This document shows positions 1,072-62,301 of a stretch of DNA of 64,000 bases, in pieces. This stretch comes from Chiloscyllium plagiosum (taxonomy: Eukaryota), in contig NC_057718.1 in the NCBI RefSeq assembly GCF_004010195.1, positions 84,541,446-84,605,445 on the forward strand. Reading direction: 5' to 3'. Within the stretch, counting starts at the first letter, position 1; each line of letters starts with the position of its first letter. The translations under genes were made by a program, and so were the position numbers. The notes beneath the pieces are model-generated. The model was given only the letters and a program-made list of their open reading frames with translations, was not told the DNA's origin and ran no database searches.

Positions 1072-1250
1072 CTTTCATTAAGGCTTATGATCTCTCATAA
1101 TCTCAATATTGCATGGAACATCTTTCTTCAATTGCTTTCACCTATTCCCCCAAACTACCAAGCCTTCCTACTCTCCACTTCCTACTCACTCACTCAGGAC
1201 TCCACACCAACTTTCCTGACTGACTAAACCCCTGCCTGACCTTAGTGCTC

Positions 1251-1420
1251 AAAATGTGTTGCTGGAAAAGCGCAGCAAGTCAGGCAGCATCCAAGGAGCA
1301 GGAGAATCGACGTTTCAAGCATGAGCCCTTCTTCAGGATGCTGTCTGACCTGCTGCGATTTTCCAGCAACACATTTTCAGCTCTGATCTCCAGCATCTGC
1401 AGACCTCACTTTCTCCTAGG
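1251..1420 (-). mobile_element. Short PLE-terminus-derived insertion with hammerhead-like core and 14 bp TSD
   Basis: TSD TGACCTTAGTGCTC at 1237-1250 and 1421-1434; internal inverted arms; minus strand 1339-1306 reads AUC-CUGAAGA-A-GGGC-UCAU-GCUU-GAAAC-GUC-GAU. Confidence 0.8.
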
Positions 1421-1459
1421 TGACCTTAGTGCTCCTTGACTGATCATTGCTGGCAAGGG

Positions 1460-1714
1460 GAAAGACTTAAAAGGGGCAGATTTTTCTTGCAGATGGTGGC
1501 GTGTGTATGGAATGAGCTGCCAGAGAAAGTGGTGGAGGCTGGTACAATTACAATGTTTAAAAGGCATCTGAATGGGTATATGCCTAGGAAGGGTTTAGAG
1601 GGATATGGACCAAATGCTGGCCAATGGGACTAGATTAGCTTAGGATATCTGGTCTGCATGGATGAGTTGGACCAAAGGGTCTGATTCCATGCTGTGTGGC
1701 TCTCTGACTCTATG
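1460..1714 (+). mobile_element. CR1 LINE 3' end (ORF2 C-terminus plus 3' UTR)
   Basis: Encodes VWNELPEKVVEAGTITMFKRHLNGYM...GYGPNAGQWD, the same terminus as other CR1 copies here. Confidence 0.85.
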
Positions 1715-3504
1715 ATTGTAATTTACCTCAATATCTGTCAACGCAAAAGGCATAGTGGGGCTGAGATGCTGTGAACACCCAAGCAAGCGCTAAGTGGATG
1801 GTTCCAAAGAAAGCAAGCAAAGAGCCTTGAGGTGCACCCTATTCCAATATATGAGGGAAGTGTTGTCCCTGTACACAACACAGCCTAGCAGTAGCATTAC
1901 AATGAAAGGTGAGTCACAAGTGAATCCACAAAGCGGTCATTCTCGTGCTTTGCTGAGGCTGGTCTCCAAAGATACAGTTTACAGGTGGTCACTGCCCATG
2001 AAGCAGTGACCTGAGATGTTGGGGAATCTCAGCAGAGATTGAGAGAAGATGCCAGAAATGCAATAAGTATAAAGTAGCAGAGAGAAGGTGGTGACATTTA
2101 ACCTTATGGAGTGTAGTAGTTCATTAACCGTCTTTGCAGCATCACTGCATATTCCTTTGGATTGTGGAGATGGCTACTCCAGTCTGGGCCAGCAATGTTT
2201 GACTCAGCACACAACTGCGGTTTAAATATGGCGGCCACAACATAAATACAGGAAGACCCTGGTGAGTGCAGAATCGTATGAGAGCAGCACCATGCAGATG
2301 TGAGGTGAGCAGCATAAAATTGCTCACTCAGGCTCACAGAAGGAAACCCTCCAGGAAATTCCCCAAAGTTGATTTTTAGTAGATTTTTTTGGAAAATTCA
2401 GCTCAGAACCTGTCAAGGGCAGGAGCATGGGATCTGGTGATTAGAGGAGCTATTATGATCATTCCCACAGTAGGATACTGATTAAGGATGATCAGCCATG
2501 ATCATATTGAATGGTGGTGCAAGCTCGAAGGGCAAAATGGCCTACTCCTGCACCTATTGTCTATTGCCATGCAGAGCTGCTTTGCTTAACAGAAATCTAT
2601 CTGTCTCACATTTAAAATTAACAACTGATCCACCACTACCATTTGTGGAAGGGAGTTCCAAACATATATCACTCTTTGTGTAGAAGTGCTTTCTAACATC
2701 ACTCCTGAATGGTCTGTAAAGTATCATTTAATAACAGAGTTAGTGAGAATGAAAAGGTGTCCCTTTAAAATCAAGACGTAATCCAAATGACAAAATCTCA
2801 AGAGAAATCCTCAAAAAAAAGTATTTCTATCCTTTGTGGGTCAGCAATTATGAAAACTCTGTCCCCATTCTGAATAAATTATAATTCTTTATTTTCAAAG
2901 ATTTAGCTTTGATTTGCCCTTACCACCTCTCCAACAGGGAATGCCTCAACTACTGCTCACATCTTGGTGGTTTAATCACTTCTCTGTGCCTGAGTTTCCA
3001 AGAAATTTCCACTCCTTTGAATGCTCCCAAGCTTCTGTTTATTTCAGCTTTATCACCAGCTAATTTCTCTGAGCTGTCTCTGACTGCATCAAACAAACAG
3101 TGCTTGTGGGCTTCCTTTAGCTGACTCTCAGCTGCACTATATTACCAATAACTGCCAGACCTTTATTTTTGTCCTAACCTTCTTCCATGACATGGAGCCA
3201 TCATTCCTTGGGGCTTGTCCTGAGTCTTAACTGCCTAGATTAGCATCTCTTTGGCTTTGGCACTCCGAGCTCCAAATTACAATAATTACAATTCCCAGCA
3301 AATACACGGCCAGAGAATTCAAAATTTGAGAACCTTCTAAGTTCCACCATCTCCATTATGATGGAGATTGCTCTGAGCTATCCTTAACCTGACTTTAAGG
3401 TTCAGTATCCCTCATTTATAATTCATTATTTATCTGATTATGTAAATGTGTTTTACACCCTTGCAGGGCTCACTGAACGTTTTAACTGACTTGGGTTTAA
3501 CTCC

Positions 3505-4090
3505 TGAATATAGGAGTTGGAATGTCATGTTGAGGTAGTACAGGATGTTGGTGAGGCCTCTTCTGGAGTGCTGTGTTCAATTCTGGTCTTCCTGTTAAAC
3601 AAGGGAGATTATCAAGCTGGAGAGGATTCAGAAAAGATTTACCAGGATGTTGTGAAGAATGAAAGGTTTGCCTTATAGGGAGAGGCTGGGTAGGCTGAGA
3701 TTTTTCTCACTGGAGCATAGGAAGTTGAGGGGTGACCTTACAGAGGTTTATAAAATAATGAGGGATATAGATAAGGTGAATGGCAGGTTTCTTTTACAAG
3801 AGGATTTCAAGAGTAGGGAGAATATGTTTAAAGTGAGAGGAGAAAGATTTTAAAAAGACATGAGAGGCATTTTTTTTTTACCCAGACAGTGGATTCATGT
3901 GTGGAATGAACTTCTGGAAGAATGTTGGATGTGTACAGTTACAATGTTTAAAAGACATTTGGATTAGGTACATGTATAAGAAATGTTTGGAGGGATATAG
4001 ACCAAATGGGATTAGTTTAGTTTGGGATTATATTTGGCATGGACTAGTTGGACTAAAAGGTCTGTTTCTGTGCCTAATGACACAATGACT
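3505..4090 (+). mobile_element. CR1 LINE 3' fragment, decayed
   Basis: ORF 3659-3853 reads YRERLGRLRFFSLEHRKLRGDLTEVYKIM; a CR1 3' UTR follows. Confidence 0.85.
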
Positions 4091-4107
4091 CCTGAAACAT
4101 CCAAGTG

Positions 4108-4423
4108 GGAGATGATGATAATGTGGTGGTAATTTTACTGGGCAAGGAATGTGGAGGCCCAGACTAATACACTAGGGTCATGGGTTCAAATCCCATTGCA
4201 TCAGTTGATGGGAATTAAATTCAAAGTAATAAGAATCTGGAGTTGAACCATCATTAATTTTCATAACAAAAAGCATCTGATTCACTAATGCTCTTTATGG
4301 AAGAAAATCTGCCATATTTACCCGATCTGTCCTAGATGTGGTGTGCCAGTCATTAAGTTCAGAATAGGAAACAAATGCTGACCTTGCTGACTGCTCCCAT
4401 AGCCCATAAAAGAGTAAATAAAA
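4108..4423 (+). mobile_element. Old SINE with LINE-like 3' tail
   Basis: Degenerate tRNA-like head with B-box GGGTTCAAATCCC (4182-4194); A-rich tail resembles the 3' end at 13600-13670. Confidence 0.55.
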
Positions 4424-4872
4424 TGTAACAATCTGGACTGTCATTATTGTAAGCAATGATGACAATACATCAGTAGCTCCATTAACAAGCCGACCTGCTG
4501 TTTCTGATCCTATCTTTCTAGTTGTTAGCTTATAAAGACTCAGGAAGCCTTTAGAAAATAGGGAAAGTATAAGGAAGAATGTATAATACAGTGTTTGGTA
4601 ATGACCTGGGATTTGCTGACCAAAAAGATGATGAAGTGGAAAATGCTTTCAAAAGAAAATTGGTTGGCACTTAAAGGAGGCAAACCAGCAGGGATTGAGA
4701 CTGACTGGATTGCTCTACATGGGGCAAACATATATTTGATGGACTGGATCGCTTCCCTTCAGTTCTGTAAATTACTCCACCCAATAGAAAGGCTTGTCTT
4801 GGACTAGCTCCCTACTATGTTGCCATCTCTTTTGTTTCTGAATATTCATGATCTGTTGTTGGTATTTTGCAT

Positions 4873-4978
4873 CAACCCATTCAAGGATGTTACGATACAC
4901 CTCTGGAAACAGGTGAACCTTGAGCTCAGCCCTCCTGGCTCAGAGGTAGAGACATTACCACATTACCACAAGAGCTCT
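4873..4978 (-). mobile_element. Short tRNA-derived SINE (same family as 29040-29147 and 41143-41250)
   Basis: Shared motif TCAGAGGTAGRGACATTA and mutual similarity of the three copies. Confidence 0.55.
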
Positions 4979-6106: not shown

Positions 6107-6432
6107 GTGGGCGGCACGGTGGCACAGTGGTTAGCACTGCTGCCTCACAGTGCCAGAGACCCGGGTTCAATTCCCGCCTCAGGCGACTGTCTGTGTGGAG
6201 TTTGCACATTCTCCCCGTGTCTGTGTGGGTTTCCTCCGGGTGCTCCGGTTTTCTCCCACAGTCCAAAGATGTGCAGGGTCAGGTGAATTGGCCATGCTAA
6301 ATTGTCTGTAGTGTTAGGTAAGGGGTAAATGTAGGGGTATGGGTGTTTTGCGCTTCGGCGGGTCGGTGTGGACTTGTTGGGCCGAAGGGCCTGTTTCCAC
6401 ACTGTAAAGTAATCTAATCTAACCTAAAAAAA
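6107..6432 (+). mobile_element. Full-length tRNA-derived V-SINE (HE1-type)
   Basis: A-box GGCACAGTGGTTAGC, B-box GGGTTCAATTCCC, central GTGGAGTTTGCACATTCTCCCCGTG domain, CR1-like tail GGGCCGAAGGGCCTGTTTCC and (AATCT)n end. Confidence 0.9.
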
Positions 6433-18826: not shown

Positions 18827-18946
18827 AGAGAAAGTGAGGGCTGCAGGTGCTGGAGATCAGAGCTGAAAATGTGTTGCTGGAAAAGCGCAGCAGGTCAGGC
18901 AGCATCCAAGGAACAGGAGAATCGACGTTTCGGGCATAAGCCCTTC
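18827..18946 (-). mobile_element. Short PLE-terminus-derived insertion inside the Copia RT
   Basis: AGAAAGTGAGGGCTGCAGGTGCTGGAGATCAGAGCTG...GACGTTTCGGGCATAAGCCCTTC; same family as 1251-1420; truncated within the ribozyme core. Confidence 0.8.
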
Positions 18947-19020
18947 ACTCCTTGTCTACCCTCACTCCTTGTTGTCCATTTGTTTCTCAAGTTTCGTAGC
19001 AAGTTTGGCCTTGGTTCCAA

Positions 19021-21692: not shown

Positions 21693-22380
21693 TGAAGTAC
21701 CATCAGGAAGTACTTTTTCCATATATATTCACTTATGAGGTAATGCTGGTCGTCCTTTAACTAGCACCCTTACATATACCCCAAATTCTTTCCAACTTCC
21801 AAGTTTTTTTCATTTTATTGCCTTTTACCCTTTCCTATCTAGCTTTGTCAGCCACTAGAGTTTCTCTATCATGAGGATCTTACTGCTTGCGGTGTTCCCC
21901 ACCTATTCTTCGGCTCTTGCTCTTGTTTAACCACATCCCCTACCAGGATCCTTGTTCCTGCCTGAACTATTACATCTCAACCTGCCACCAGACTTCCTTT
22001 CAGAGGTTCTTGATCTTTTCCTTGAACTAAGATCAGCATGAAGCTCAACGTCTGACCTGACATTATGTTTCTTGACTTTCCACAATTTTTATCTCCTCCT
22101 TTCAATCATTCGATCTGATATTCTGCTCCTTGTCTTGCAAATTCAGTCACCTTTTGTATTTCCTAGTGTTGCTTCCTGCCCTTCCTACTATGATGACTCA
22201 CTCGGTCCTCCTGGATGATTGATCTTTGTGACAAATGGCATCACTTGGTATACTCTTAGTCTGTTGTATTTCACAGCTGCTGTCTGCATAGGCACATCAT
22301 TGGTCTTCATCATTTGTCCAGACTCCATCAGCGTGCAATCAGTGGCAGTAAGAATGTACGCTATATGGAATGTACTCTAA

Positions 22381-23866
22381 CAGGTTGTAATTGCTTTCAG
22401 ATGCTAGGTGACATCATCAGTGAGCCTCCAGTGAAGTGCTGGTGTTCTGTCCACTTTCTATTTATTTGTCTTGGTCTATTAGGGTGGGTGATATCATTTC
22501 CAGTTCTTTTTCTCAGAGATTGGTAAATGGGTTCCAAATCGATGTGTTTATTGATGGATATCCAGTTTCTAGCCTCTAGGAGTTCCTGTGCATGTCTCTG
22601 TTTAGCCTGTCCTAGGATGGATGTGTTGTCCCATTCGAATGGTGACCTTCTTCGTCCATTTGTAAGGATACTAGTGATAGTTGGTCATGTCTTTTGGTGG
22701 CTAGTTGGTGCTCGTGTATCCTGGTGGCTAGTTTCCTGCCTGCCTGTCTGAAGTAGTGTTTGTTGCAGTCCTTGCAGGGTATTTTGTAAATGACATTCAT
22801 TTTACTGGTTGTTGGTACAGGGTCCTTTAGTTTCATCAGCAGCTGTTTCAGTGTGTTTGTAGAATTAGAAGAAACCTATAATATCATTAACCACATATTT
22901 ACTGGCATAAATTTCATCAATGAATAAGAGAACAACAACAGGCTCCCCTTCCTACATGGAACAAACAGTCAATGGAGGACTGCAGACCAGCATCTACAGG
23001 AAAGCAACACAGATATTCAATGACAGGAACAATCATCTCAACACCCACAAACGGAGCTGCAGGACACTATTTATACTTCCACAACATATTGCAGCACCCA
23101 GGAACTACGAGAAGCAGAAGAAAAATACCTATACAGAGTATTCAAGAACAATGAGTACCCGATAAACATAGTATGCCAATCCTTAAACAACAAACCCAAA
23201 AAGAAGATACAACACACCCAGAGACTCTCATCACATACCATACATCAAAAACATCTTTGAGATGACTACCAGACTACTCCGACTCCTTGGCATCATGGTA
23301 GCCCACAAACCTACCAACACACTGAAACAGCTACTGATGAACCTAAAGGACCCTGCAACAATAACCAGCAAAATGAATGTCATTTACAAAATAGCCTGCA
23401 AGGACTGCAACAAACACTACATCGGACAGACAGGCAGAAAACTAGCCACTAGGATACACAAACACCAACCAGCCACCAAAAGACATGACCAGCTATCATG
23501 AGTATCCTTCCACACAGACGAAGAAGGACACCACTTCCATTGGGACAACACATTCATCCTTGGACAGGCTAAACAGAGACATGCACAGGAATTCCTAGAG
23601 GCCTGGCATTCAAACTGGAACTCCATCAATAAACACATCGATTTGGACCCCATTTACCAACCTGGAATAGAACTGGAAATGATATCACCCACCATAACAG
23701 ACCGAGACCCATAAACAGAAAGTTGGACAGAACACCAACACTTCAATGGAGGTTCACTGATGATGTCACCTAGCATGGTGACGAAATGTCTAAGGACAAA
23801 CCTACTGGCTCAGCAAGCAAACTTACAACCTGAACCTCAACCTGAGCTAAAGATCTTCTCAAAAAT
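22381..23866 (+). mobile_element. Penelope-like element (RT C-terminus plus GIY-YIG endonuclease) with an inverted partial copy at its 5' side
   Basis: ORF 23262-23501 NVIYKIACKDCNKHYIGQTGRKLATRIH is a GIY-YIG motif; 22381-22862 is the reverse complement of about 23311-23832. Confidence 0.9.
23753..23794 (+). ncRNA. Hammerhead ribozyme core in the PLE 3' region, partly decayed
   Basis: CUGAUGA (23757-23763), U, stem II GUCACC/GGUGAC (6 bp), GAAA (23783-23786), U, GUC (23788-23790). Confidence 0.65.
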
Positions 23867-24708: not shown

Positions 24709-26009
24709 CTGATCTTTTCTGAAAAGTCCACCTTAATAAATGCTATACTGTTAGCATGCATGGAATTTAGTTGATCTAATTGTAGCCCTTTCCAAAGTCT
24801 GGGGTTGGGGGTAATCCCACATGATGGAGAATATTTTTCGGATTCCTTCCAAAAATTAACTGATGGGCACTACAGACCCCAGATATCTGATTTTGTTTTG
24901 CATGTACTGGCTGTATTAAAGTAGTTGTCAATTAAGATTATTGTCCAGCATTTTGTTAATCATAGCATAATTTCTTTCTCAAATCTCATTACTAACGAGA
25001 CTTTCTGCTATCATGTGCATTGCTATAACATTCTAATTTTCACAAATACTCCTGAAATACTCATTGGAACGTTCTCCTTCATTGTCTGTTTGGCATGTAA
25101 TGATGATCCCCACCCATCTCTCTAATATGTTATCAATAATTTCACTGTAATCTTTTCTATAAATTACCACTAGACTAAACTTGGTCACTATGACCACAAA
25201 ATATAAAAGATAAATCTTTATTCCTTAAAGTCTATTGCTACAGTTTAATTAGAATTTATTTCCAGTGGAAGACTTACTACTGTTTGCAATTTCATTCTCC
25301 TATACTTTTTAAAACTATTACAGTTTTTGTGAATATCCTCAAAGTTTACCACATTCCTCATTGAGTACGTTTGCATCCTTTCAGAGAATTTTCAATTTGT
25401 GACATGATGGATGTAAAATCTTTCAATGTGGTTTTGAAATAATCGGCTTCTTTCCCTGTAAATCCTCATCCCCAATGCCATTTATAATACCCTAATGATC
25501 TGCTTAAAAATGGTAGGCCTTCTAATGGATTGCAATAAAGTCGTAACTGTGTGAATTGCAAATCTACAGATCTCCCAAAGACAAATCACTTTATTGTACT
25601 CCATATCCAACTTAATTTGGTGCTTTTTAAGTAAGTGGTCAATTAAAAGTAAAGGTATATCATCAGACACTTTGTCGGTACTTTTGATGTGATTTACCAA
25701 TGTTGTCTTGCACAGTATTACTATTCTTTTCGGTGATTTCAATGTATGGTCATCACTGATCCTAAATTAGTAGAACATCATATTTTTTGAAACAAGCAAA
25801 AATGTAAATTACTGGAGAAACTCAGCAGGTTGGCAACATCTGTGAAGCAAAAACAGTGTTAATATTTCAAGTCCAGTAATTCTCATATTCTTTGACCTTG
25901 TTTCAGTCTCCCAAGAATCTATGTAACACTTCAACTCTTTGGAGTTACACTCATTATCGAGAACTGTACAATTGAACAAATCTGTTACTCAATTTGATAC
26001 TTGTTACTG

Positions 26010-29446: not shown

Positions 29447-29985
29447 GACAGGACTGCAGACGCTGGAGATCAGAGTTGAGAGTGTAGTGTTGGAAAAGCA
29501 CAGCAGGTCAGGCAGCATCCGAGGACCAGGATTATCGACGTTTTGGGCCTAAGCCCTTCCAGAGGGCAGTGTTGATTTGGAGGTTTGGGACTGGGAAAAT
29601 GTGGGTGGAGGGGAAATGAGGAAGCTGTTGAAATCCACATTTATCCCATGTGGTTGCAGGGTCCCAAGGCGGAATATGAGGCGTTCCTCCTCCAGGCGTT
29701 GGGTGGTAATGGTTTGGCGGTGGAGGAGGCCCAGCACCTGCATGTTCTTGACTGAGTGGGAGGGGGAGTTGAAGTGTTCAGCCACGGGTGAGTGGGAGGG
29801 GGAGTTGAAGTGTTCAGCCACGGGGTGGTGGCTTGGTGGGTGTGGGTGTCCCAGAGATGTTCTCTGAAACAATCTGCAAGAAGGCGTTCTGTCTCCCCGA
29901 TGTAGAGGAGTCCAGACCGGGTGCAACGTATGCAGTAGATGACATTAGTAGAGGTGCAGGTAAATGTCTGACGGATGTGAAAGGG
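29447..29985 (-). mobile_element. Penelope-like element 3' fragment (GIY-YIG region plus terminal repeat)
   Basis: PVAEHFNSPSHS...LEEERLIFRLGTLQPHGINVDF and terminal CAGCAGGTCAGGCAGCATCC repeat; contains a 36 bp tandem duplication at 29753-29824. Confidence 0.85.
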
Positions 29986-30179
29986 ACTAAGGTATCAGCA
30001 CAAGTCGAAGTCATACGATTATGATAAATCAGCCAGTACAGTTTGATCAAAAGCACTTCTCTAATCATCACTTTTTTAGTCAGAAAAGCCAACAAAAATT
30101 GCATGCACCATCATCTGCATTACAAGTTATCCATGGTACATGGTCAACAAAGTGAATGATCATTTATTAACAAAACTGT

Positions 30180-33430: not shown

Positions 33431-34490
33431 ATACTAATGCTCAAAGTATACAGGTGGTGGATGAATTCACTAGTGAGCCTGTCAGCTGCAAAGTTGGGAA
33501 AAAAAGTGAGCCGGTTATTGGAGGAACACAAGTTTCTTCAATACTCTCATTAGCTCCTTGCTTCCCCTCTATTTCTTTTATCTACCATGGTTTGTAATAT
33601 GTAGATTGTTTGCAACTTTTGAAAAATTCTCCCACAAACTTGTAGTCAGCTTGTATGTTGAACGTAAGATGTGAACTGCCAGTGTTGGTGTTCACCAGCT
33701 GCCATGGGCATTCTGCTTAGCCTGGGCACATCTTGGTAACATTTCTATACCACCTGCTTTATCTTGTGAAGTGACTTAGAAAACAAATTTAATCTTAAAC
33801 ACGTATTCTGAGCTGAAAACTTGAGTCCAACTCCTAATTTATATATGGTCATAAACATGCAATTATTAGCTGAAAAATAGGGGGACCCTATTGACTCTAT
33901 GTATGTTATTTCTCCATTCACAGTATTAGTGTTAAATCATTTAACTTTTCTGTGTTTTGTGAGTGAGTGGGTGTGTAATTCAGGGCTTTTGAAGAGGTAT
34001 AGTTTAAGTCTCATTGTAGAAATCTTTACTTTCTCTTCGTTTTTGTTGAAGTGTGTATCAGTAAATAATTATTTTTCTGTTACTGACTTAACCCTGGAAT
34101 GAATTTCCTTTGTCCAAATAGCAATCAGTTAGGAAAATTTGTCATTTTGGTGGTTTAATTGGATTTTATATATTTTGGGATAGCTTTTGCAACAGTGGGG
34201 CACGAATATTGGCACTCTTTCCAGAGAAATCCGAAGACTTCCCTGACTGTGTACTTGCTTAAATCTTGTTCCAATTCAATTTTTTTTCCTAAAGCTCCTT
34301 GGCCTGGATCGATAACACTTTCTGTCAGATCGTAGATAGTGCCCAATCTGCTGATCACTTCGAGCTTCTACTCTGGCATCCAAAATGTTTCACTCTTATA
34401 CACACACTATTGTTTCGCAATAGCCCAAAATGCACTTTAGGTGCGTTTCAATTTTGAACCCATTTGCTCCCATGGACCGTGTATTATAAC

Positions 34491-34707
34491 GGGGAGAAAG
34501 TGAGGTCTGCAGATGCTGGAGATCAAAGTTGAAACTTTATTGCTGGAACAGCACAGCAGGTCAGGCAGCATCCAGGGAACAGGAGATTCGACGTTTCGGG
34601 CACAGGCCCTCTCATTCCTGAAGAAGGGCCTGTGCCCGAAACGTCGAATCTCCTGTTCCCTGGATGCTGCCTGACCTGCTGTGCTGTTCCAGCAATAAAG
34701 TTTCAAC
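34491..34707 (+). mobile_element. Very young palindromic PLE-derived insertion with TSD
   Basis: Perfect 83 bp inverted arms (34528-34610 / 34625-34707); direct repeat ACCGTGTATTATAAC at 34476-34490 and 34706-34720. Confidence 0.9.
34614..34649 (+). ncRNA. Minimal type I hammerhead ribozyme (PLE-type)
   Basis: AUUC-CUGAAGA-A-GGGC-CUGU-GCCC-GAAAC-GUC-GAAU: conserved core, 4 bp stem II, stem I AUUC/GAAU, loop-less palindromic stem III (ACGU), predicted cleavage after C34645. Confidence 0.75.
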
Positions 34708-34940
34708 CGTGTATTATAACAAATAGTGCGCAATCTAAATCTTGTCGCGTAAATATAAATGCTGATATTAACGTCTGTTGAGCCCGAGTAAATTTTGAAT
34801 ATTTAAGTTTTGCGTTTAATAAAGCATTGCAATTTCGGCCATTCATTTAGATGTTAAGGACTTTTGATCTGAAAAGCTGACCTATTTTAATGACATCTAA
34901 GTATTCTGAAACAGCTTGATCAATTCACATATTTATTAGT

Positions 34941-41032: not shown

Positions 41033-41139
41033 GAATTTGCTTTGGCAGCATTATACTAAAACTGGAATGGTACAGAGGAGATTAGCATGGCCCCATGCAC
41101 AAGGATGACATGTAAATTTGTAAAGAGTTCCATATTTTT
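41033..41139 (+). pseudogene. U6: U6 snRNA pseudogene, near full length
   Basis: GGCAGCA-TTATACTAAAACTGGAATGGTACAGAGGAGATTAGCATGGCCCCATGCACAAGGATGACATGTAAATTTGTAAAGAGTTCCATATTTTT aligns along U6; CpGs decayed and ACAGAGA box changed to ACAGAGG. Confidence 0.92.
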
Positions 41140-41984: not shown

Positions 41985-42545
41985 TAGAGTTGAAAAGTGT
42001 GGCGCTGGAAAAGCACAGTAGGTCAGGCAGCATCAGAGGAGCAGGAGCGATGACGTTTCAGTCATAAGCCCTTCATTGGGAATGTAGTGGGAGGGAGCTG
42101 AGGCATAAATGGGGGGTGGGGTGAGAATAGAGCTGTGGGGGGAGGGGGAAAGTATGTTGAAGGCAGTAGGTGGGGAGGTGATGTTAATAAGTCAGAGGGT
42201 GGAGCAGATATGTGGGAAGGAAGATTGACAGGTGGGATAGTTCAAGGGGGCAGTGCAGAGTTGGAGGATTGAATCTGGGATGAGTTGAGGGGGAGCACAG
42301 ATGAAGAAACTGGTGAAATCAACATTGATGCCATGTGTGGTTGGAGAGTCCCAAGGTGGAAGATGAAGTGTTCTTCTTCCAGGCATAGGCTGGCTAGGCA
42401 TTGGTGGTGGAGGTGGCCCAGAACTTGCATGTCCTTGGTGGAGTGAGAGAAGGGAGTTCAAGTGGTTGGTCACAGGGCGTTTGTGTGTCCCAGAGATGTT
42501 CTCTGAAACGTTTAGTGAGTTGGTGTCCTGTCTCCCCAATGTGGA
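41985..42545 (-). mobile_element. Penelope-like element 3' fragment
   Basis: LEEEHFIFHLGTLQP / HGINVDFTSF motifs and the terminal repeat as at 29447. Confidence 0.82.
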
Positions 42546-42897
42546 GCACATCAAGAGCAATGGGCACACTAAATGAAAACTCTTTTGAAAGTGGTCCAAG
42601 GGTAGACAGAGTTCATATTTTGGGGTCTGTTGAAAGAGCGCAGATGAATGGGGGTAAGGTTGTCTTGGTGGGGCAGGGTCAAAATATTTGGGACAGTTTA
42701 CAGCATTGGATTGACACTAGCATCCTGAAGATTAGTGCAAGGCTTACTTTTTGTCTTGGTTAATGTCTGACTAATCATGTTTGATCACTTCAAATGCAGT
42801 GGGCAATTGAGGCATTTGCATTGTGTTATAACATTGGGCAAATCCTCTTGATTAATGTAAACCACAACACAGAAAAGATTTATTTCGTGCAGTAATT

Positions 42898-44415: not shown

Positions 44416-44778
44416 TTCTCAAGGGGCTACACCCAAAAGTAAAAGACTTGATATACAAGGAGCTGACTGTAGATACAGAACTGTGCCATTAGATCAAGTG
44501 CTGTTCGTCAATGCAAGTAAAACACAGGTTGCTCAAGTCAATCCTGCAGTATGGTATTTGTCAGCCTTTGGAAAAATCATGTGAAACTCTTCAGTGTTTT
44601 CTGATCTGTGGTATGAGTGGCTTATCAGCATCTATGGGTGCAGTCTCTTGCATGAAAGACTACTTTTCAAAGGATATTAGGGAAGTCAAACTGAAAAGTA
44701 AAAGGCTTTTGACATTTGATGTTTACTGCATTAAAGGACAGGCATTTTGGAGTTCAGTACTGGCTTTTAAATCTTATT

Positions 44779-44897
44779 AGATAAAAACAATGACTGCAGA
44801 TGCTGAAAACCAGAGTCTCGATTAGAATGGTGCTGGAAAAGCACAGCAGTTCAGGCAGCATCCGAGGAGAAGTAAAATCGACGTTTCGGGCAGAAGC
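44779..44897 (-). mobile_element. Short PLE-terminus-derived insertion with 15 bp TSD
   Basis: CTTTTAAATCTTATT at 44764-44778 and 44898-44912 flanks AAAACAATGACTGCAGATGCTG...GACGTTTCGGGCAGAAGC. Confidence 0.85.
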
Positions 44898-46849
44898 CTT
44901 TTAAATCTTATTGTATTGGTGGTACAGTGGGCAGCAAAAGCTTTCTTCTTGGCAGAAGATGTGAATGAAAAGTACTTAATGTTAATGCTTCTATCAAGGA
45001 GATCTACAATAATCTTGTTGCCACAGAGTTAATGCTATTTAATGCTTGTACTTTAAAATTTTAATTTATAAAACATTGTACTTTGTGCTGAACTGCAGAT
45101 CATGTATTTCTTTATTACAATTGTTAAGTTTACCAGGTCACCAGACCTAGTCTTATGAAAATTTTAGTGGATCTTAAATACTTTCATCCTCACTGCCGGC
45201 ATAATATAATCTCAAATTGCTATCTCTGGATATGACAAAACTACATGGAAAAAGATCATGTTCACTTTGGGATTTATAGAAATTTCACTAGTCCTTCATT
45301 GCAATGTTTGTAGTGAGAGTTGAAAGAAAATTGTGTTTCTGTCTAACTTTGAGCATCGTTTGTTTTTAGGATTAATCAATTTAAATATGGATTACAATGT
45401 GGAAATGAAATCTTCATTCATCCATCTTTCTGCAGATTATCTTCCACTTTCTATTTCAAAATTTTGTATGTTCATTTTGTTACAAAAATGAATTTGTTCA
45501 CAAAGTTTGCAAGATAAAATATGCTGTGCAAAAGCTGCTTGCAATGGTGAAGGGAAAGAAAGCATTTAAGTTCTGTTAACAATTTATTTTTGATCTGAAA
45601 GCTAAGAAACTATGTCAAATGAGGCACCTGAGAGCTGTTAAATGTGCTGTACTTTGTGACACTAATCAGTTATCTTGAAGCTGCATTGTTGGATTTACAT
45701 AATTCAGTAACCAACATTTTTTTTGTAGGCTTTTAGTTGGTGGAATTGAAATTTATAAGTTGTGTAGAAGTTTAAAAACAAATTATTGAGGTTTACTTTT
45801 AACTACTTTAAAAGGTTTGTAAGAGCATTTGGTCCTCATCTTTTTGTGATGCAAAATTGCTAGGAAGTATCTTTTTTTTAAATTGAGCTGCTGAGATCTT
45901 TTTTACAATAAACTTTTATACTAGATGCATAACATTGGACAAATGGATTTTTTTTATCAGAAGTCTTTTTTATTATTTGAAGACCATCCAATTCCTTTTA
46001 CAGCAGTGTCTATGAAACTGAGTGGACAGTAATTACTTCCGTATTTAATACTATGAACTATATAGGTTAGATGGTTGCTTAAAAAATTAACTTATGGGTT
46101 TGTCAGTTTTTCCCCCTAGTACACCATATACATATTTTTCTCTTAGCTCTTAGTAATGTTTATATACTAAAGTGAGCTTGATCCCACTTAACCTGAAGTG
46201 GCAATAAAATTACTTGTGTGGAAATTAATTGACTTTAAATCCCCAGGTTTAAAGAAATATTTTTCATGAAATCCCAAGAAAGGCTGTCAGAATTTGGGTT
46301 AATGGATTTGATTCCTATTGTGTAAAACTAGATTCTTGCGCCTAATTTGCTATTTGTGCGCAAGTACGGAGGTTTCTTCCAAAGTAGGATTCAGAAATAT
46401 TGGGAGTGGAAACTTCTTTTTGTGTGAAAATACCTTGTTGTTTGTGATTAGTTACTTAGAGCATTTAGTTTTTCCACAGTTGCTTTATAATTTATCAGAA
46501 TGAAAATTGGTGACAAGCCGAATGACCACTTTTATTAATGTCGCTAAAATGTGCAGCCGGAAAAGCATCGCAGGTCAGGCAGCATTGGAGGAACAGGATC
46601 GTCAACGCTTTGGGTTGGAATTTTTGTTAATCCTTTGTAGCAAAAAGCGAGGATATTGTACGCATTAAAGTTTTTTAAGAAGAACTTTTTTGTTGCTGCA
46701 TATGTGCAACTTTTTAAAATGAACTTTACTGTTGTATATCAGGTAGGAAGATGTTAACAGTTGAATATCTCTACAAAAGAAATTTAGATTCAGTCCAACC
46801 ATTAATTTCCATGTAGTTGGTAACTCTCCACAGGTGCTGGCATACCTCC

Positions 46850-47257
46850 AATATTTTATCATGAGACCATTCTTCGGTCAAAATTTCACTATCAACGGTA
46901 CTTAGTGAATTGAAAAGTTTTATCAATTTCCACCTCTCACTGTCCTTCACCTGGTCTATCTCTGAATCCTCCTTTGCTTTCCTTGATATTTCTGATTCCA
47001 TTTCTGGGGATAGACTGGCCTCTGATATCCACGACAAATTCACTGACTCCCACAGTTAGCTTTATACATCCTCACATCCAGCTTCCTGTTTTTAAAAAAA
47101 AAATTGTTCTAGTCTCCCAGTTAATCCTGCTCAGTTGCATCTGTTCTGATGATGCCATCTTCTACAAGGGGGCCTCCAGAATATCCTCCACCTTCCTCAG
47201 CCCAGGTTTCCCCACCGTCATGGTTGACAGGGCTCTCAGTCATGTCTGACCCATCTC
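46850..47257 (+). mobile_element. Old Penelope-like RT fragment
   Basis: Degenerate FLDISDSISGDRLASDIHDKFTDSHS and SQLILLSCICSDDAIF, homologous to the PLE RT at 48600-49320. Confidence 0.65.
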
Positions 47258-47699
47258 CATTTTTAAAAAAATACTTGGCTGTTCCCCTGCTGTGAGCAGT
47301 TCTCCTAAGGTCTTTCGCTATTTACTGTATTTGTCTTAAACCTAACTGAAATAATGCAACAACTTTGAGTAATTACTACTCAAAGACATTAAGGAAATCA
47401 GCTCCAACACTGGAAAATACCTCAAAGGATCAGCTCTAACAGCCATAATTTTCTTCTGTCCACCTGTTCCTAAAACAGACAGGACATTGGGGCTGACTTG
47501 ATGGTTGTTAAACTCATCGTGCTGGTAATTTTAATATAGCCTTCATTTGATTCGGAGTAATGTCTGCTTTCCAGACAATAGTGAGTACAGGTTTGAGAAT
47601 TTGTAAGTCCATGTACTACAGTTTGTTCACTATGCCAAAACTGGTTGAAAATACAAGGCCTCTGAGACCAATTTTGTACCAATTGCAGTGTTGTTGATG

Positions 47700-49945
47700 G
47701 TCTTGAAAGTACAGCAGGTCAGGCAGCATCCGAGGAGCAGGAAATTGACGTTTCGGGCAAAAACCCATTATCAGGATTAGAGGCAGGAAGCCTCCGGGGT
47801 GGAGAGATAAATAGGGGGAGGGGGGGTGAGGACAGTGTTGAGTTGGAAGGTTGGAACTGAGGTAAGGTGGGGAAACTGGTGAAGTCCACATTGATGCCCT
47901 GGCGTTGAAGTGTTCTGAGGTGGAAGATGAGGTGTTCTTCCTCCAGGTGTCAGGTGGTGAGGGAGCAGCAATGGAGGAGGCCCAGGACCTGCATGTCCCT
48001 GGCAAAGTAGGAGGGGGAGTTGAAATGTTGGGCCACGGGGCGGGGGGGTTCATTGGTGCGGGTGTCCCGGAGATGTTCCCTGAAGCGCTCTGCGAGGAGG
48101 CATCCAGTCTCCCCAATGTAGAGGAGACCGCTTATGCCCGAAACGTCGATTCTCCTGCTCCTTGGATGCTGCCTGACCTGCTGCGTTTTTCCAGCAACAC
48201 ATTTTTCAGCTCGGATCTCCAGCATCTGCAGTCCTCACTTTCTTTGAGACCGCATCAGGAGCCAAGGGTTCAATAAATGACATTGGTGGATGTGCAGTTG
48301 AAACTTTGAAGGATGGGAAAGATTGCTTTGGGGCCTTGGGTGGTGGTGAGGGAGGTGGTGTGGGTGCAGGTTTTGCAATACCTGCGGTGGCAGGTGATGG
48401 TGCCAGGATGGGAGGGTGGTTTGTTGGGGGACGTAGACCTGACCAGGTAGTCACGGAGGGAACGGTCTTTGCGGAAAGGGGTGGGGAGGGAAATATATTT
48501 CTGGTGGTGGGGTCCGTTTGGAGGTGGCGGAAATGTCGGTGGATGATTATGGTTAATGGTAGAGTGGAAAGTGGGGGTGGGGGGGGGGTTCCGTCCTTGT
48601 TTCAGTTGGAGGGGTGGGGTTTGAGGGCGGAGGTGGGGGATGTGGATGAGATACATTGGAGGGCATCTTCAAACACGTGAGAAGGGAAATTGCCATCTCT
48701 AAAAAAAAAAAAGAGGACATTTGGTTTGTTCTGTAGTGGAACTGGTCCTCCTGGGAGCAGATATGGCGGAGGAATTGGGAATACGGGATGGCATTTTTGC
48801 AGGAGTTGGGGGAAAGAGGTGTAATCCAGGTAGCTGTGGGAGTTGGTGGGTTTGTAAAAATTGTCAGTGTGAAAGCCGGTCGTCATTAATGGAGATGGAG
48901 AGGTCCAGGAAGGGGAGGGAGGTGTCAGAGATGGTCCAGTTGAATTTAAGGTCGGGGTGGAATGTGTTGAAGTTGAACTGCTCAACCTCCTTGTGAGATC
49001 ACGAGGTGGCGCCGATGCAGTCATCAGTGCAGCGGAGGAAGAGGTGTGGAGTGGTGCCGGTGTAACTACGTGGCTGACAAAGAGACAGGCATAGCTGGGG
49101 CCCATATGGGTGCTCACGGCTCCCCCTTTGGTCTGGAGGAAGTGGGAGGATTCGAAGGAGAAATTGTTAAGGGTGAGGACCAGTTCAGCCAAACGAATGT
49201 GTGTCAATGGAAGGGTACTGTTGGGGACGTCGGGAGCGGAAGAAACTAAGGGCTTGGAGGCTCTGGTCATGGTGAATGGAGGTGTAGGGGGATTGGATGT
49301 CCATGGTGACGATGAGACGTTGGGGGCGGGGTGTTTTAAAAAATTCTCAAGGTCAAGGACCAGGCTCGCAGGAAAGTAGTCTGACACAGAACAAACAGCC
49401 AAGAGGCGAGTCTGCTAGAATATAAGTGTTTTTATTCCCCGCAGCGTCGCCACAACCAGTCTCGTACTTACAACGGGTCTGGTTTATACTCACTCTACGT
49501 GTTACCGGAACTGGGAGCCGTCAGTTCTCGTAGAGCGGTTGCCAACAACCCACGCTCGGCGGTTAAACGCAACCCCGGAGCAGACTCACCGAACTGGAGA
49601 CTTTTCCAGCTGATATACTCTTTTCCAGATATAAACATTCATGTGAACAGCAGAGCAAGGCTAAAAAACACATTCCATTCTGGTTACATACAGATAAGAA
49701 GATTCACACGGGGAGGTGTGTAATAAGATTCACACGGGACTAAGCAACACCTCCATTCCGGTTAGATTCACACATGTATTGGGACATAATTTTTAACCGT
49801 TTCACCACACGGGGGAAACGGAAGTCATGGAGGAGGTGGAGGACGTGGGTGGTGTCTTGGATGCTGCATGACCTGCTGTGCTTTTCCAGCATCACTCTGA
49901 TCTAAACTTTGGTTTCCAGCATCTGCAGTCCTCACCTTTGCCTAG
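47700..49945 (-). mobile_element. Penelope-like element (RT plus GIY-YIG) with inverted terminal piece, nested short insertion (48132-48245) and nested solo LTR
   Basis: LAELVLTLNNFSFESSHFLQTKGGAVSTHMGPSYACLFV (RT), LLYIGETGCLLAERFREH (GIY-YIG); inverted terminal repeat at 49860-49945; nested insertion flanked by GAGACCGC. Confidence 0.9.
49332..49809 (-). mobile_element. Solo LTR (478 bp) with 5 bp TSD, nested in the PLE RT
   Basis: CGGGG (49327-49331) TGT...ACA CGGGG (49810-49814); minus-strand AATAAA at 49431-49436; repeated AGATTCACAC; CpG-rich. Confidence 0.85.
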
Positions 49946-51369
49946 TTGAAGCGATAAGAATGCCTAGTGTAGGAAGTGAAATATATTAATGACAGGCTGA
50001 GGCTGGTTATAAACTTTTGAGCTTTGCATCTGGTATTTGTAGTCCTAGTAGCTTGTCCTTTTGTCAGGTGAACCCATGGTGTAAGCTTTGATATATTTTC
50101 TACAGTATGTGTTGCAATGCTGCATCAATAGTTGAAGGTTATGTATCCAGTTATTAGTAAACTTCTTTTGAACGTTATTTTTATTTAGCCAAATATTTAA
50201 TGGTTCGAATGTTGCGCTCTTGATAGCTATTGAGACTGTTATCTTTTTGGAACTAGTTTTGCTGTTAGCATCACTTGTTTGGTAGCTATGTGCTAAAACC
50301 GATTGAGATGTCAATGGCACCTGATGGGAATTAATATAACAGCAGTGGTGCAGTAGAGCACGTATTCAGGTTTGATTTATACAGAAAGTACTATGGTTTG
50401 GAAAGAATACTGGTATCTGATATTTAAATTGTGATGTGGTCATCTTTATTTGATTTTAGTGAAACTTGCAATCATGGAAATATAGAATTGTATTGTACCA
50501 AAAAGAGGCCATCAGCCACTGAACATATGTTGACTTTTGGTAGGACTAATTGAATAACTACTCTTCTGTCCTTTTTTCTTTTGGAGCCCTGTAGATTTTT
50601 TTCTTTTAAATATTTTCCAGTTCTTTGAGCTACTAAATAAATTGCCATTCTTTCAGGCACTGCTTTCTTGATCACCGTAACCCTGTGTATACAGAAACTA
50701 ATCCCACCTCAGTTTGCGTTTCTTGGTTGCCTGGATTCACTGGAAATATAATGTGGAAGAGCATGATACTGTAATCTTTTGCTATAAATTCTGTATCTTA
50801 TTGTCCTGCTCCACAACTACCTGATGAAGAAGCAGTGCTCCAAATAAACATGTTGGACTATCACCTGCTGTTTGTGATTTTCAACTTTGTTCACTGGAAA
50901 TAGATTTTGCTTACTGATTGATAAAAGTGCCTCATGATTTCTTTTTCCCTTGGTTTTTTTATGCTCTGAGACCAACCCCAGCCACAGTACTGAAACCCCA
51001 CACCCTGGTATTCCAGTAAATTTCCTCTCCTCTTTCCAAGAGCCTGGACACTTCAGAAGTGTGGTGCCCAATAGCACCATTGGCAATTGCTTGCTATTAA
51101 GTACGATTGACCACATCAGAGATTCTTTGTCACTGGTCATGAGTACTGTGTTCTTGTATGGCTTATGAGTCCAATCCTAGAGCTGCATCTTCAACCACAC
51201 ATTTATCACATTTCTGGGAGGTGGAATTGGCCTTGGCCTTGAGATTATTGGCATTCTTTTCTTTTTCTGTACTTGCTCTTGCCACTGGGTATTCCAAAGA
51301 TTATCTCTCCATATAGGAGTTTCTTCCACGATTGAAGAACAATTGTTTTTTTGCTAGTTCCCTGACTCG

Positions 51370-51725
51370 TTCCTAATGAAGGGCTTTTGACCAAAACATC
51401 GTTTTTCCTGCTTCTCGAATGCTGCCTGACCTGTGCTTTTCCAGCACTACTCTAATGAAGACTATGATCTCCAGCATCTGCAGTCCTCACTTTTGCCTAG
51501 TTGATTTTAACCTTACTGCGAATGCTCTTGCAAGGATGCCTACCTTGAAGTTCTCCTCCGCTCTCTGCAAGGTTTTCAGTGAGTCTCTGTCTCTGTCTCT
51601 CTGTCTCTGTCTCTCCTCTCTGTCTCTGTCTCTCCTCTCTGTCTCTGTCTCTCCTCTCTGTCTCTGTCCCGCTCCTAGGATGCTGCCTGGCCCTGCTGTG
51701 CTTTTTCAGCACCACTCTAATCTAG
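51370..51725 (+). mobile_element. PLE terminal-repeat-derived sequence containing a (TCTCTG)n microsatellite (51583-51668)
   Basis: CTAATGAAGGGCTTTTGACCAAAAC (decayed hammerhead) and TCTCCAGCATCTGCAGTCCTCACTTTTGCC; second partial repeat at 51670-51725. Confidence 0.7.
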
Positions 51726-51739
51726 ACCCCAGTTCAGTG

Positions 51740-53885: not shown

Positions 53886-53994
53886 AAGTGTGGTTTTGTC
53901 AGATGCAGCACCAGAGCACAGACTGTGGGGAAACATTGAACAGTGTGTAGCTGTTGCAAAGGATGGAGATTGATCAGAGGTTGTGTATGGCTCC

Positions 53995-59420: not shown

Positions 59421-59509
59421 GTATCAAATTTAAGTTCTACTTAATTGATTCTTCCCAGTTCCCTTTCTTGTGAATTATGGAGTCTCCTTAAATGAATGCA
59501 CTCAAAATA

Positions 59510-59970
59510 CACCATGAAAAAGGAGCAGAAGTAGGACATTTGGCCAATTGAGACTGCTGTGCCATTCAATAAAATCATGTCTGATCTGATAATCATCAAG
59601 TCCACATTCCTGTATTTGCCCTATAACACTTTATTCCCTGCCTGGCTATCTGTCACTCTTAAGTGTTCTTAACAATCCCATCTCTCCAATCCATTATGGT
59701 AAAGGATTCCACAGATTCACTACTGACTGAGGGGGGAAAATACGTTCTCATTTGTCTTAAATGAGCAATCTCCTCTTCTGAGATTATGACTTCTGGTCCT
59801 ACACTGTCAAGGGGAAACAAACTCAGCATCCACACTGTCAAGCCATGTAAGGATCTTTTTATGTTTGAATAAATTTATCCTCATTTCTTCTAAACTGAGT
59901 GTAGGCCTAGCCTAACCTATTCAACCTCTCCTTGTAAGACAATATTCCATAACCAAGATCAATCTCGTAA
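59510..59970 (-). mobile_element. Old CR1-type 3' end
   Basis: AGGAGCAGAAGTAGG...CCATTCAATAAAATCATGTCTGATCTG...GATTCCACAGATTCACTAC. Confidence 0.6.
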
Positions 59971-61218
59971 GCCCAAACCAGAAATTGCTGGCAAAACTCA
60001 ACATGTCCGGCAGTATCTGTGGAAAGAAAGTAGAGTTAATGTTTCAAAGCTGTTTAGTTACTTACTACAGTTGCCCTTTTTGTAACCAGTCTATCATGTA
60101 CTTGATGAAATGTCACATGCTAATGAAGACTTAAATTGTTTGTCCAGATGATTCAGCCATTCAGAATATAACTGCTAATGTAAGGATTTGTGTATAACTT
60201 GAAGGACTTGATCCACGGACTTCCATGTTTTTGAATATTGATTAACCTCTACCTTAATCTTTTGTCCCCGGAATGTAAAGTATCTGTAATACACCACTGA
60301 AAAGGAGCTGGGAAGTCTGCCTGCTGCCTTGGCAGTAACATTCATTACTTAGGCAGTATCATACATGCTTGTGGGACCTTGCTGTGTACGGAACAGGTTG
60401 CTGCATTTGTGATGCTACACCAATGAACACTTGAAAGTCTTTGACTGTTAATGAAATGTTGCAGTGTGGAGAAAATTGTTTTATAGGTGTAAGTTCTTTA
60501 TTGGTCTTTTAACTCCCATTGCAGTTGAAATGATTTTGGTTTTCTGAATTGTCTATTTTATTTCAGCAACATTTCTGAACGCAACTCTGAATTCTAAAAT
60601 TAATATTTTCTGGCTCACCAGCTCAGCTACGATGATTCCAGAGTAAACAGAAGAAGGACTTGATCAGAGTCAGAGATGCACAGCACAGAAACAGACCCTG
60701 TGGTCCAACTCGTCCATGCCAACCAGATATCCTAAATTAATCTAGTCTAGTCCCATTTGCCAGCACTTAGCCATATCCCACCAAACCCTTCCTACTTATG
60801 CCCATCCAGATGCTTTTTTAAATGTTGTAACTGTCCTAGCCTCCTCCATATCATCTGGCAGCTCATTCCATGCGTGCATCACCTCTGTGAAAAAAAATTG
60901 CCTCTTGGGTCCCTTTTAAATCTTTCCCCTCTTGCTGTAAACCTGTGCCCTTTAGTTCTGGACTCCCCTACCCTAGGGAAAGGATCTTGTCTATTTACCC
61001 TATCCGAGTCATCTTATAAACATCTATAGGGTCTCCCATCAGCTGCTGATGCTCCAAGGAAAACAGCTTCAGCCTATTCAGCCCCTCCCTATTGCTCCAA
61101 CCTTGGCAACATCCTTGTAAATCTTTTGTGTGCCCTTTCAAGTTTCACAACATCCGTCCAATAGGAGGGAAATCAGAATTGCACACAAAAATCCAACAGT
61201 GGCCTAACCAATGTCCTG

Positions 61219-61347
61219 GAGGTAAAAACAATGACTGCAGATGCTGGAAACCAGATTCTGGATTAGTGGTGCTGGAAGAGCACAGCAATTCAGGCAGCAT
61301 CTGAGGACAGGCAAAATCGATGTTTCGGGCAAAAGCCCTTCATCAGG
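61219..61347 (-). mobile_element. Short PLE-terminus-derived insertion with 12 bp TSD and hammerhead core
   Basis: ACCAATGTCCTG at 61207-61218 and 61348-61359; minus strand CUGAUGA-A-GGGC-UUUU-GCCC-GAAAC-AUC. Confidence 0.85.
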
Positions 61348-61849
61348 ACCAATGTCCTGTACAGCCGCAACATGACCTTCCCAACTCCTATACTCAATAC
61401 TCTGACCGATTAAAGGAAAGCATACGCTGCCTTTGCTATCCTATCAACCTACGACTTCACTTTCAAGGAACATTGAACCTGCACTCTAAGGTCTCTTTGT
61501 TCAGCCACACTCCCCAGGACCTTTTAAGTGAATATGTCCTACCCTGATTTGTCTTTCCAAAATACATACCTCACATTAAACTCCATCTGCCACTCCTTCG
61601 CCCATTTGCCCACCTGATCAAGGTCCCATTGTATTCTGAAGTAACCACCTTCACTGTTCACGACACCACCAATTTTGGTGTCATCTGCAAACTATGCCTT
61701 CTATATTTACATCCAAATCATTTACATAAATGACAAAAGCAGTGAACCCAGCACTGATCCTTCTGGCACACCACTCGTCACAAGCCTCCAGTCTGAAAGG
61801 CAATCATCACCCTCCGTCTTCTACCTTTGAGCCAGTTCCAAATACAGAT

Positions 61850-61929
61850 AGGTAAAAACAATGACTGCAGATGCTGGAAACCAGATTCTGGATTAGTGGT
61901 GCTTGAAGAGCACAGCAGTTCAGGCAGCA
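61850..61929 (-). mobile_element. Short PLE-terminus-derived insertion with 13 bp TSD
   Basis: TCCAAATACAGAT at 61837-61849 and 61930-61942; nearly identical to the first 80 bp of 61219-61347. Confidence 0.85.
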
Positions 61930-62301
61930 TCCAAATACAGATGTTTAGTTCACACTGTATTCCATGAGCTCTAATCTTGCTAACCAGTCTACCACGTGGA
62001 ACCTCGTCAAATGCCTTATTGAAGTCAGTGTTCATGACATCCACTGCTGTGCCCTCATCGATCCTCTTCATTGCTACTTCAAAGAACTCAATAGTGAGAC
62101 ATGATTTCCCACGCACAAAGCCATGTAACCATCCCTAATCAGTCCTTGCCTTTCTAAATACATGTAAATCCTGTCCCTCAGGATTCCTTCCAACAACTTG
62201 TCCATCATCAATGTCAGGCTCACCGCTCTATAGTTCCCTGGCTTTTCCTTATCACCTTTCTTAAATAGTGGCACCACGTTAGTCAGCTTCCCATCTTCTG
62301 G

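Follow-up and report, generated by a model that had tools for sequence, protein, structure and literature searches.

A stretch of 64,000 nucleotides from the genome of the shark Chiloscyllium plagiosum (RefSeq assembly GCF_004010195.1, contig NC_057718.1, forward strand, positions 84,541,446 to 84,605,445; hereafter, the window) carries a set of short, non-coding insertions that match the termini of Penelope-like elements (PLEs). We interpret these insertions as extremely 5'-truncated copies, two of them with an inverted arm, that were made by the reverse transcriptase (RT) and GIY-YIG endonuclease protein of a Neptune/Nematis-type PLE and that do not constitute a self-propagating family; we put the probability of this reading at roughly 0.8. 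An origin from PLEs by retrotransposition and extreme truncation was one of the options in the original prediction, and it is supported by target-site duplications (TSDs), empty sites and terminus matches. The one point of interest beyond the known layout of such units is that the far ends of the copies pile up at the 5' half of a hammerhead ribozyme (HHR) motif. Throughout, positions within a copy are counted in the PLE sense from the predicted hammerhead cut (C17 = 0).

Copies were collected by running four probes, taken from listed copies, across the window, and all copy counts as well as the set of breakpoints refer to the window only. This search yields 16 PLE terminal segments at 13 loci. 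The stubs make up about 2% of the window (1,310 of 64,000 bp), which is vertebrate DNA of 41% G+C that is rich in 3' ends of long interspersed nuclear elements (LINEs). As had been predicted, all copies match the ends of the coding PLE copies at 29447, 41985 and 47700; the identity between the stubs and the closest termini of copies that encode RT or GIY-YIG is 77-90%. Two of the segments, at 49856-49949 and 51667-51726, were absent from the original prediction. Two weaker matches, at 25798 and 59985, were excluded from every count. They are diverged ends (25795-25840 and 59985-60017; 78-82% identity over 33-45 nt) that, from their sequence, may belong to a third type of PLE terminus.

At 6 of the 13 loci the insert is bounded by an exact TSD of 8-15 bp, and these are the six short inserts for which clean TSDs had been claimed. 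The insert at 1251-1420 has an exact TSD of 14 bp (1237-1250 on the left and 1421-1434 on the right), and that at 34491-34705 has one of 15 bp (34476-34490 and 34706-34720), 2 nt of which also fit the element. For the remaining four, all exact, the TSD copies start at 44764 and 44898 (15 bp; unit 44764-44912), 48124 and 48246 (8 bp; unit 48124-48253), 61207 and 61348 (12 bp; unit 61207-61359), and 61837 and 61930 (13 bp; unit 61837-61942). When 20,000 random positions were treated in the same way, allowing the exact repeat to lie within 3 nt on either side of both boundaries, repeats of at least 8 bp were obtained in 0.1% of the trials and repeats of at least 12 bp in 0.015%. In addition, we deleted the insert together with one TSD and sought the resulting junction in paralogous repeats of the window. 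Such empty sites exist for three of the six inserts: that of 48132 is spanned by two other PLE copies, that of 61219 by eight LINE copies, and that of 61850 by five; no junction-spanning paralogue was found in the window for the other three. Since the TSDs are exact and the junctions are restored, the TSD-flanked stubs are true insertions. No TSD was found in the window sequence at the remaining seven loci; among them, the copies at 18827, about 46545 and 51370, which had been described as lacking a clear TSD, are indeed present, and no TSD of at least 7 bp was found for them.

Some of these insertions are old, since a related species (organism B) carries, at the same locus, the 44779 stub as well as the two ends of the long PLE described below. 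Two further observations concern individual sites. One LINE copy (60666-62300) contains two stubs 500 bp apart, which are 98% alike and have the same orientation. The 18827 stub has a near-duplicate 14-mer (18939-18969) at its 5' junction, and this sequence suggests slippage as the cDNA end annealed to the target.

The parent element can be recognized from the longest coding copy, a 5'-truncated and frameshifted PLE on the minus strand (47706-49855). It contains RT, a CX2-5CxxC linker, GIY-YIG, a 3' untranslated region (UTR) and a decayed HHR (47774-47747), and it is interrupted twice, by the 48132 stub and by a long terminal repeat (LTR)-like insert. The homologous proteins P0001 and P0002 align by tblastn over 49304-47839, crossing the 48132 stub without loss, and they match RVT_1 and GIY-YIG, that is, RT followed by a C-terminal GIY-YIG endonuclease; none of the six open reading frame (ORF) fragments of the window, searched alone, matched Pfam. 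The linker precedes GIY-YIG in the window translation and in the homologues P0001, P0002, P0009 and P0010, and it is described as a mark of Neptune and Nematis PLEs (PMC8557442). Judged by these motifs, the parent is an endonuclease-positive (EN+) PLE of the Neptune/Nematis type, and among named sequences its protein is closest to homologues from Rhincodon typus and Chiloscyllium punctatum. Beyond the LTR-like insert, the RT frame resumes and extends to 49855, where it directly meets an opposite-strand segment at 49856-49949 (plus strand; +14 to about +103). This segment is an inverted, tail-bearing arm that abuts the 5' break of the long PLE, so that the long coding PLE at 47706-49949 has the same short inverted arm layout as the two small hairpin inserts described below. 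The LTR-like insert itself (49330-49812), which starts with TG and has AATAAA near its end, is nested in the RT region and is skipped by other PLE copies (joint 49325 to 49812). It is covered very deeply in organism A, with strand-biased RNA reads, and at zero depth in organism B; it is a species-restricted repeat.

The other two coding copies are shorter and also lie on the minus strand. That at 29447-29990 is a 5'-truncated GIY-YIG end whose terminus extends to about +86 to +91. The joint between its shortened 3' UTR and the terminus falls inside the HHR, at about -22, and could, from its sequence, reflect either a template jump or a later deletion; its GIY-YIG region contains a perfect 36-bp tandem duplication (29753-29824). 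The copy at 41986-42550 is an old, 5'-truncated one with a GIY-YIG end, a 3' UTR and a decayed HHR, and it ends at +64 (site A, see below). An old PLE RT fragment lies at 46904-47258 on the plus strand.

The 5' side of the element may be represented by the copy at 51367-51582 (plus strand), which begins at about -33, or by eye perhaps about 10 nt further upstream, and runs past the tail. The sequence after the tail (51504-51668) leads to a putative ORF start (ATG at 51536) and then to a (GTCTCT)n microsatellite (51583-51668), after which follows the PLE end at 51667, an old stub on the plus strand (51667-51726; +6 to about +53-62, site A) that adjoins the microsatellite. From the order of these parts, the two copies may be one internally deleted unit, and 51367-51582 may represent the junction between a 5' pseudo-LTR (pLTR) and the ORF. 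No full-length copy of the partial-tandem form, pLTR-ORF-pLTR, was found in the window. The ORF thus seems to start at about +135, although the N-terminus predicted from this ATG resembles only 3 of 101 homologues, including P0013 and P0018, and does so weakly.

In the PLE sense, the fixed end of an insert is its 3' end, where reverse transcription starts. The original prediction assigned one such end to all copies; instead, there are two, which we call sites A and B. Of the 16 segments, 8 end at about +94 to +103 (site B), 1 at about +86 to +91, 5 at about +53 to +65 (site A) and 1 at +42, and the remaining one (51370) reads on beyond site B; ends of subtype-B copies were taken from the alignment by eye. 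The two sites are separated by about 35-40 nt, and the interval between them is, from its sequence, the known 30-40-bp PLE tail. All four one-armed inserts with TSDs start at B: 44779-44897 (minus strand; about -17 to +98), 48132-48245 (plus strand; -15 to +96), which lies antisense within the GIY-YIG region of the long PLE, 61219-61347 (minus strand; -28 to +98), and 61850-61929 (minus strand; +20 to +97), which shares a micro-homology of at most 5 nt with its TSD. The last two lie in the same LINE. Among the single stubs for which no TSD was found, that at 18828-18946 (minus strand) covers -22 to +95, and the old one at 46543-46614 (minus strand) covers -10 to +61, ending at site A.

In contrast to these, the inserts at 1251 and 34491 have two arms, one starting from B and the other from A, so that only one arm bears the tail. 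The first consists of an inverted arm without a tail (1251-1338, minus strand; about -29 to +58) and a direct arm with it (1336-1420, plus strand; +17 to +100); the arms are 93% identical and overlap by 3 nt at the junction. In the second, the tail-bearing arm (34491-34610, minus strand; -20 to +96) is followed by an inverted arm without a tail (34612-34705, plus strand; -33 to +60), and the two are identical over 81 of 81 nt. At the long PLE, the tail sits on the short arm at 49856.

Reads and contigs of the species, aligned over 44600-50100 with an 80% threshold (contig runs X1 and X13, read run X21, and run X14), show these ends as well. Note that the statements below refer to the 24 of 6,554 loose ends that were listed, ranked by an undisclosed rule and some of them uncounted, and that contig depth is not treated as copy number. 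Loose ends occur at 48243 (862 contigs in X1, 994 in X13 and 887 reads in X21) and at 48205 (412 in X1 and 232 in X21); at both, the consensus stays with the element for a few bases before it gives way to unalignable flank. Opposite-strand joints recur in both species among the 15 joints listed, beside which there are 2,038 further joints.

A similar arrangement has been described for PAc, a Poseidon element of Anolis carolinensis, whose tail was traced to two internal RT start sites, with both strands extended; in vitro, RNA 3' of the start site (about 55-60 nt beyond it) was needed and HHR cleavage was not (PMC11167929). By analogy, the shark protein would nick the target with a stagger of 8-15 nt and prime reverse transcription within the RNA, at B (about +97) or at A (about +60). 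In the two-armed inserts, a second nick would prime a second cDNA at A, and both cDNAs would then be joined head to head. Two cDNAs are needed for these hairpins because the B arm holds +60 to +100 and the A arm holds more upstream bases. We compare this joining with the twin priming known from L1; unlike in the L1 model, the arms here share 43-81 nt, an overlap that points to two templates or to strand displacement. A fold-back of a single cDNA is rejected, since each arm holds sequence that is absent from the other. Thus, of the earlier claim that copies truncate or fold back inside the hammerhead, the clustering of far ends stands, whereas the single-strand fold-back gives way to a miniature inverted-arm layout with non-equivalent arms.

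The hammerhead motif was identified by a pattern search as CUGANGA-helix II-GAAAC-GUC, with no loop on helix III. The best-preserved example, a minimal type I motif at 34614-34649 (plus strand), has a helix I of 4 bp, a CUGANGA core at 34618, a helix II of 4 bp and GAAAC-GUC, with a predicted cut after 34645. Only in this arm of the 34491 insert are the core and both helices intact: in the 1251 insert the core (1336-1309) has a weakened helix II, 61219 spans the whole core with one core mismatch, and 61850 has no HHR. The motif fits the minimal, dimer-type HHR described in PMC4209133, as far as the sequence tells. Rfam reported no hammerhead in the window at its gathering score, and its sub-threshold microRNA matches at 34491 reflect hairpin shape only. 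Folding gave little more: only one of nine single copies folds better than its shuffles (z -2.2), and a stem conserved in the alignment fold (about +16 to +24 paired with +73 to +81) has compensatory changes in 0 of 17 pairs. Therefore, we claim no selected structure. Pattern scans gave no match in viral contigs, and a phage collection contained no match; pattern matches at 13 metagenome loci are attributed to chance, since their length, 20-38 nt among the 70 matches listed, is about that of the pattern itself.

The far ends of the 13 short arms lie at about -33, -33, -29, -28, -22, -20, -17, -15, -10, +6, +14, +17 and +20, where micro-homologies of up to 5 nt move some of them by a few bases and the reference itself extends only to -33. 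The cDNA is usually no longer than about 80-135 nt, ends inside the HHR or at its 5' edge, and is joined by 0-5 nt of micro-homology. The three coding copies reach more than 400 nt further upstream, so that 13 of 16 far ends fall between about -33 and +20 (p = 1.4e-5 against a constant-hazard null, which is crude and weak: the long-copy lengths are rough, the arms of one insert are not independent, and n is small). Enrichment of breakpoints at the ribozyme, which had been put forward as a test, is therefore seen in the window as a non-uniform distribution. The largest listed group of loose ends agrees with this: it marks the 5' boundary of the 48132 copy (2,406 contigs in X1, 2,133 in X13, 731 reads in X21 and 313 in X14), and in all four runs the consensus upstream of 48130 reads through the 5' half of the HHR before turning into run-specific sequence. 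This pattern fits many copies that end just before the core, but diverse 3' UTRs could produce it too.

A question arises as to whether the ribozyme sets this boundary: the HHR might cleave the RNA, and the RT might then run off the cleaved 5' end. The well-formed minimal HHR in the youngest copy is in keeping with such a process, and 4 of the 13 short arms have their far end at +6 to +20, which is reachable from a cleaved template with the loss of few bases; these four could indeed come from cleaved RNA. However, no arm ends at the GUC cut (0/+1; 0 of 13), and nine retain sequence 5' of it (-10 to -33) and therefore cannot derive from a cleaved linear RNA. These two counts speak against a boundary set by ribozyme cleavage, which was one of the options offered earlier. 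As weaker evidence, there is no pile of loose ends or read starts at the cut (48147/48148 or 44879/44880) among the loose ends listed, nor a pile of begins or ends there in a raw poly(A) single-cell run, a library poorly suited to the purpose. PAc insertion, too, was unchanged by HHR mutants (PMC11167929). We consider cleavage as the source of the boundary very unlikely.

Even less credible is the other option, a non-LTR retrozyme, in which tandem HHR-to-HHR monomers give rise to circular RNAs that re-insert. The inserts have in common with animal retrozymes a type I minimal HHR, kinship with PLEs and long TSDs (PMC7229834; bioRxiv 10.64898/2026.07.22.740005), and retrozymes are reported in the one chondrichthyan genome sampled (bioRxiv 10.64898/2026.07.22.740005). 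Yet no head-to-tail tandem array of the element was found in the window, no same-strand head-to-tail joint occurs among the 15 joints listed, and no permuted copy was found. Furthermore, the 5' ends are all different, the whole HHR core is spanned by only 4 of the 13 short arms and partly or wholly missing from the other 9, and what precedes the HHR is flanking DNA or PLE 3' UTR rather than the other end of a monomer.

Several observations weigh against truncation by the PLE protein as the whole explanation. The far ends of 13 of 16 segments fall within about 55 nt, and none lies between about -45 and -430, which is tighter than random truncation; ordinary truncation therefore needs an added cause. 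No TSD links 47706 and 49949 (the best repeat has 5-6 bp), and their treatment as one insertion depends on the seamless junction. For inverted junctions, self-priming on an antisense template is the explanation preferred in PMC3846280. PAc belongs to the Poseidon clade, so that its transfer to the shark clade is an analogy. In raw RNA reads, the terminal bins exceed the ORF bins about tenfold in depth (978 and 413 versus 40-109), which fits a separately transcribed short template, although diverged ORFs may drop below the 80% threshold. Finally, the window contains no coding partner of subtype A.

The last two points lead to a rival in which the stubs form a non-autonomous sub-family resembling short interspersed nuclear elements (SINEs): short masters, consisting of a pLTR, the tail and a little of the ORF start, as in 51367-51582, would be transcribed from an internal pLTR promoter and mobilized in trans by the PLE protein. 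The excess of termini over coding parts (13 short arms versus 3 coding copies in the window) is as expected of such masters, pLTR sequences are reported to mobilize other RNA in trans (PMC3846280), and non-autonomous Chlamys PLEs exist (PMC8557442). The relationships among the copies speak on both sides. More groups were found than the two subfamilies noticed earlier: subtype A (1251, 18827 and 48132; 93-95% alike), subtype A2 (34491), subtype B (44779, 61219 and 61850; 89-98% alike), a B-related group (49856, 51370, 51667 and 47700), and further, older copies outside these. A separate non-autonomous template may have served subtype A. However, the coding-linked termini 47700 and 49856 fall inside the B-related clade (support 0.97), so that the stubs, perhaps with the exception of subtype A, have no clade of their own, and all 13 short arms differ in their 5' junction, where a short master would give a fixed 5' end. 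RNA reads of B type at the loose end 44898 continue into sequence that is, by eye, identical at 22 of 30 nt to the 3' UTR of the 47700 copy. The stubs contain no conserved reading frame, their subtypes differing by indels of 2-3 nt, and in the upstream flanks of eight stubs no match anchored to any of the three coding 3' UTRs was found. On balance, we regard a SINE-like sub-family as improbable, if less so than the two ribozyme-based schemes.

Under truncation by the PLE protein, two causes could be added to account for the far ends. The first, which we hold to be somewhat short of an even chance, is that the template RNA has its start a short distance 5' of the HHR, and that reverse transcription primed close to this start would yield run-off stubs; the second, for which we would give slightly lower odds, is that the RT stalls in the HHR or in a nearby structure. 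Counted from the upstream side, the first four short ends fall in a 6-nt interval, beside a TCATT that resembles the initiator consensus. This TCATT, at about -31, precedes the HHR core by 4 nt; helix I, too, places a constraint on its bases. An initiator-like TCACT is reported in an Adineta pLTR (PMC3846280), and PLE transcripts are reported to start within the pLTR (PMC2377424). If the ORF does start at about +135, priming would take place about 130 nt from the RNA 5' end, and run-off stubs would be the expected main product. A more speculative extension, which we think has a smaller chance than either cause taken by itself, is that the stubs preserve, like fossils, the position of the PLE RNA 5' end: they would record run-off between the transcription start (TCATT, about -31) and the tail, with nick 1 using site B and nick 2 site A in a fixed way, probably on two RNAs in a dimeric ribonucleoprotein. 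If this were true, one mechanism would account for the tails and the inverted arms as well as for solo minimal hammerheads, and the HHR would occupy the extreme 5' end of the mRNA without contributing to the making of the template. In either case, the stubs lack the RNA beyond the start site that PAc needs in vitro, so that by this analogy they would not be copied again and are probably dead on arrival.

Two neighbouring features belong to other families. A second, unrelated PLE at 22340-23830 forms an inverted pair with its own minimal HHR (23757-23792) and appears by eye to share the inverted, one-tailed layout; no TSD was found for this composite. The CX2-5CxxC linker was not seen in it, and it is therefore Penelope/Poseidon-like. 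At 41038-41139 there is a copy resembling U6 small nuclear RNA (Rfam, 79.8 bits) with several substitutions, which is probably a pseudogene.

A literature search in a collection that lacks most subscription papers turned up no publication dealing with the shark family or with an accumulation of 5' ends at the HHR. As regards annotation, the stubs belong under PLE ends rather than under SINEs, retrozymes or microRNA hairpins. Thousands of TSD-bounded copies would represent a natural data set on PLE tails, inverted arms and the role of the hammerhead; how tails and inverted arms are formed and what the hammerhead does are questions that the cited papers leave open.

Among known systems, animal retrozymes (PMC7229834; bioRxiv 10.64898/2026.07.22.740005) have some features in common with the shark inserts. 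Both are non-coding, with a type I HHR, pLTR kinship and long TSDs, but retrozymes are described as giving circular RNAs and as consisting of tandem monomers, each about 150-450 bp long and containing a full HHR, whereas the shark stubs are single or head to head and mostly lack a whole HHR. The solo minimal HHRs of metazoan PLEs (PMC4209133) share the CUGANGA / GAAA core, an extra base before helix II and the absence of a helix III loop (dimer type), although helix II of the shark motif has just 4 bp; the thousands of single motifs and the opposite-strand pairs among them were likewise attributed to truncated PLEs. PAc (PMC11167929) shares two start sites one tail apart, located 3' of the minimal HHR, with matching genomic ends and both strands extended. 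It belongs to another clade, its ORF starts in HHR stem II whereas the shark ORF apparently starts about 35 nt past site B (weak evidence), and the shark element is known from sequence. The closest match is provided by EN+ PLE insertion units (PMC8557442; PMC3846280), which consist of heavily 5'-truncated copies with an inverted copy at the 5' end and a 30-40-bp tail at one end, and which have variable TSDs (8-10 bp in Adineta), micro-homology junctions and nesting in opposite orientation. The shark units differ in that they are often only 80-215 bp as a whole, have TSDs of up to 12-15 bp, and have 5' ends that cluster at the HHR. The layout of truncated and inverted PLE insertion units is thus already known, and the shark family is an addition to it.

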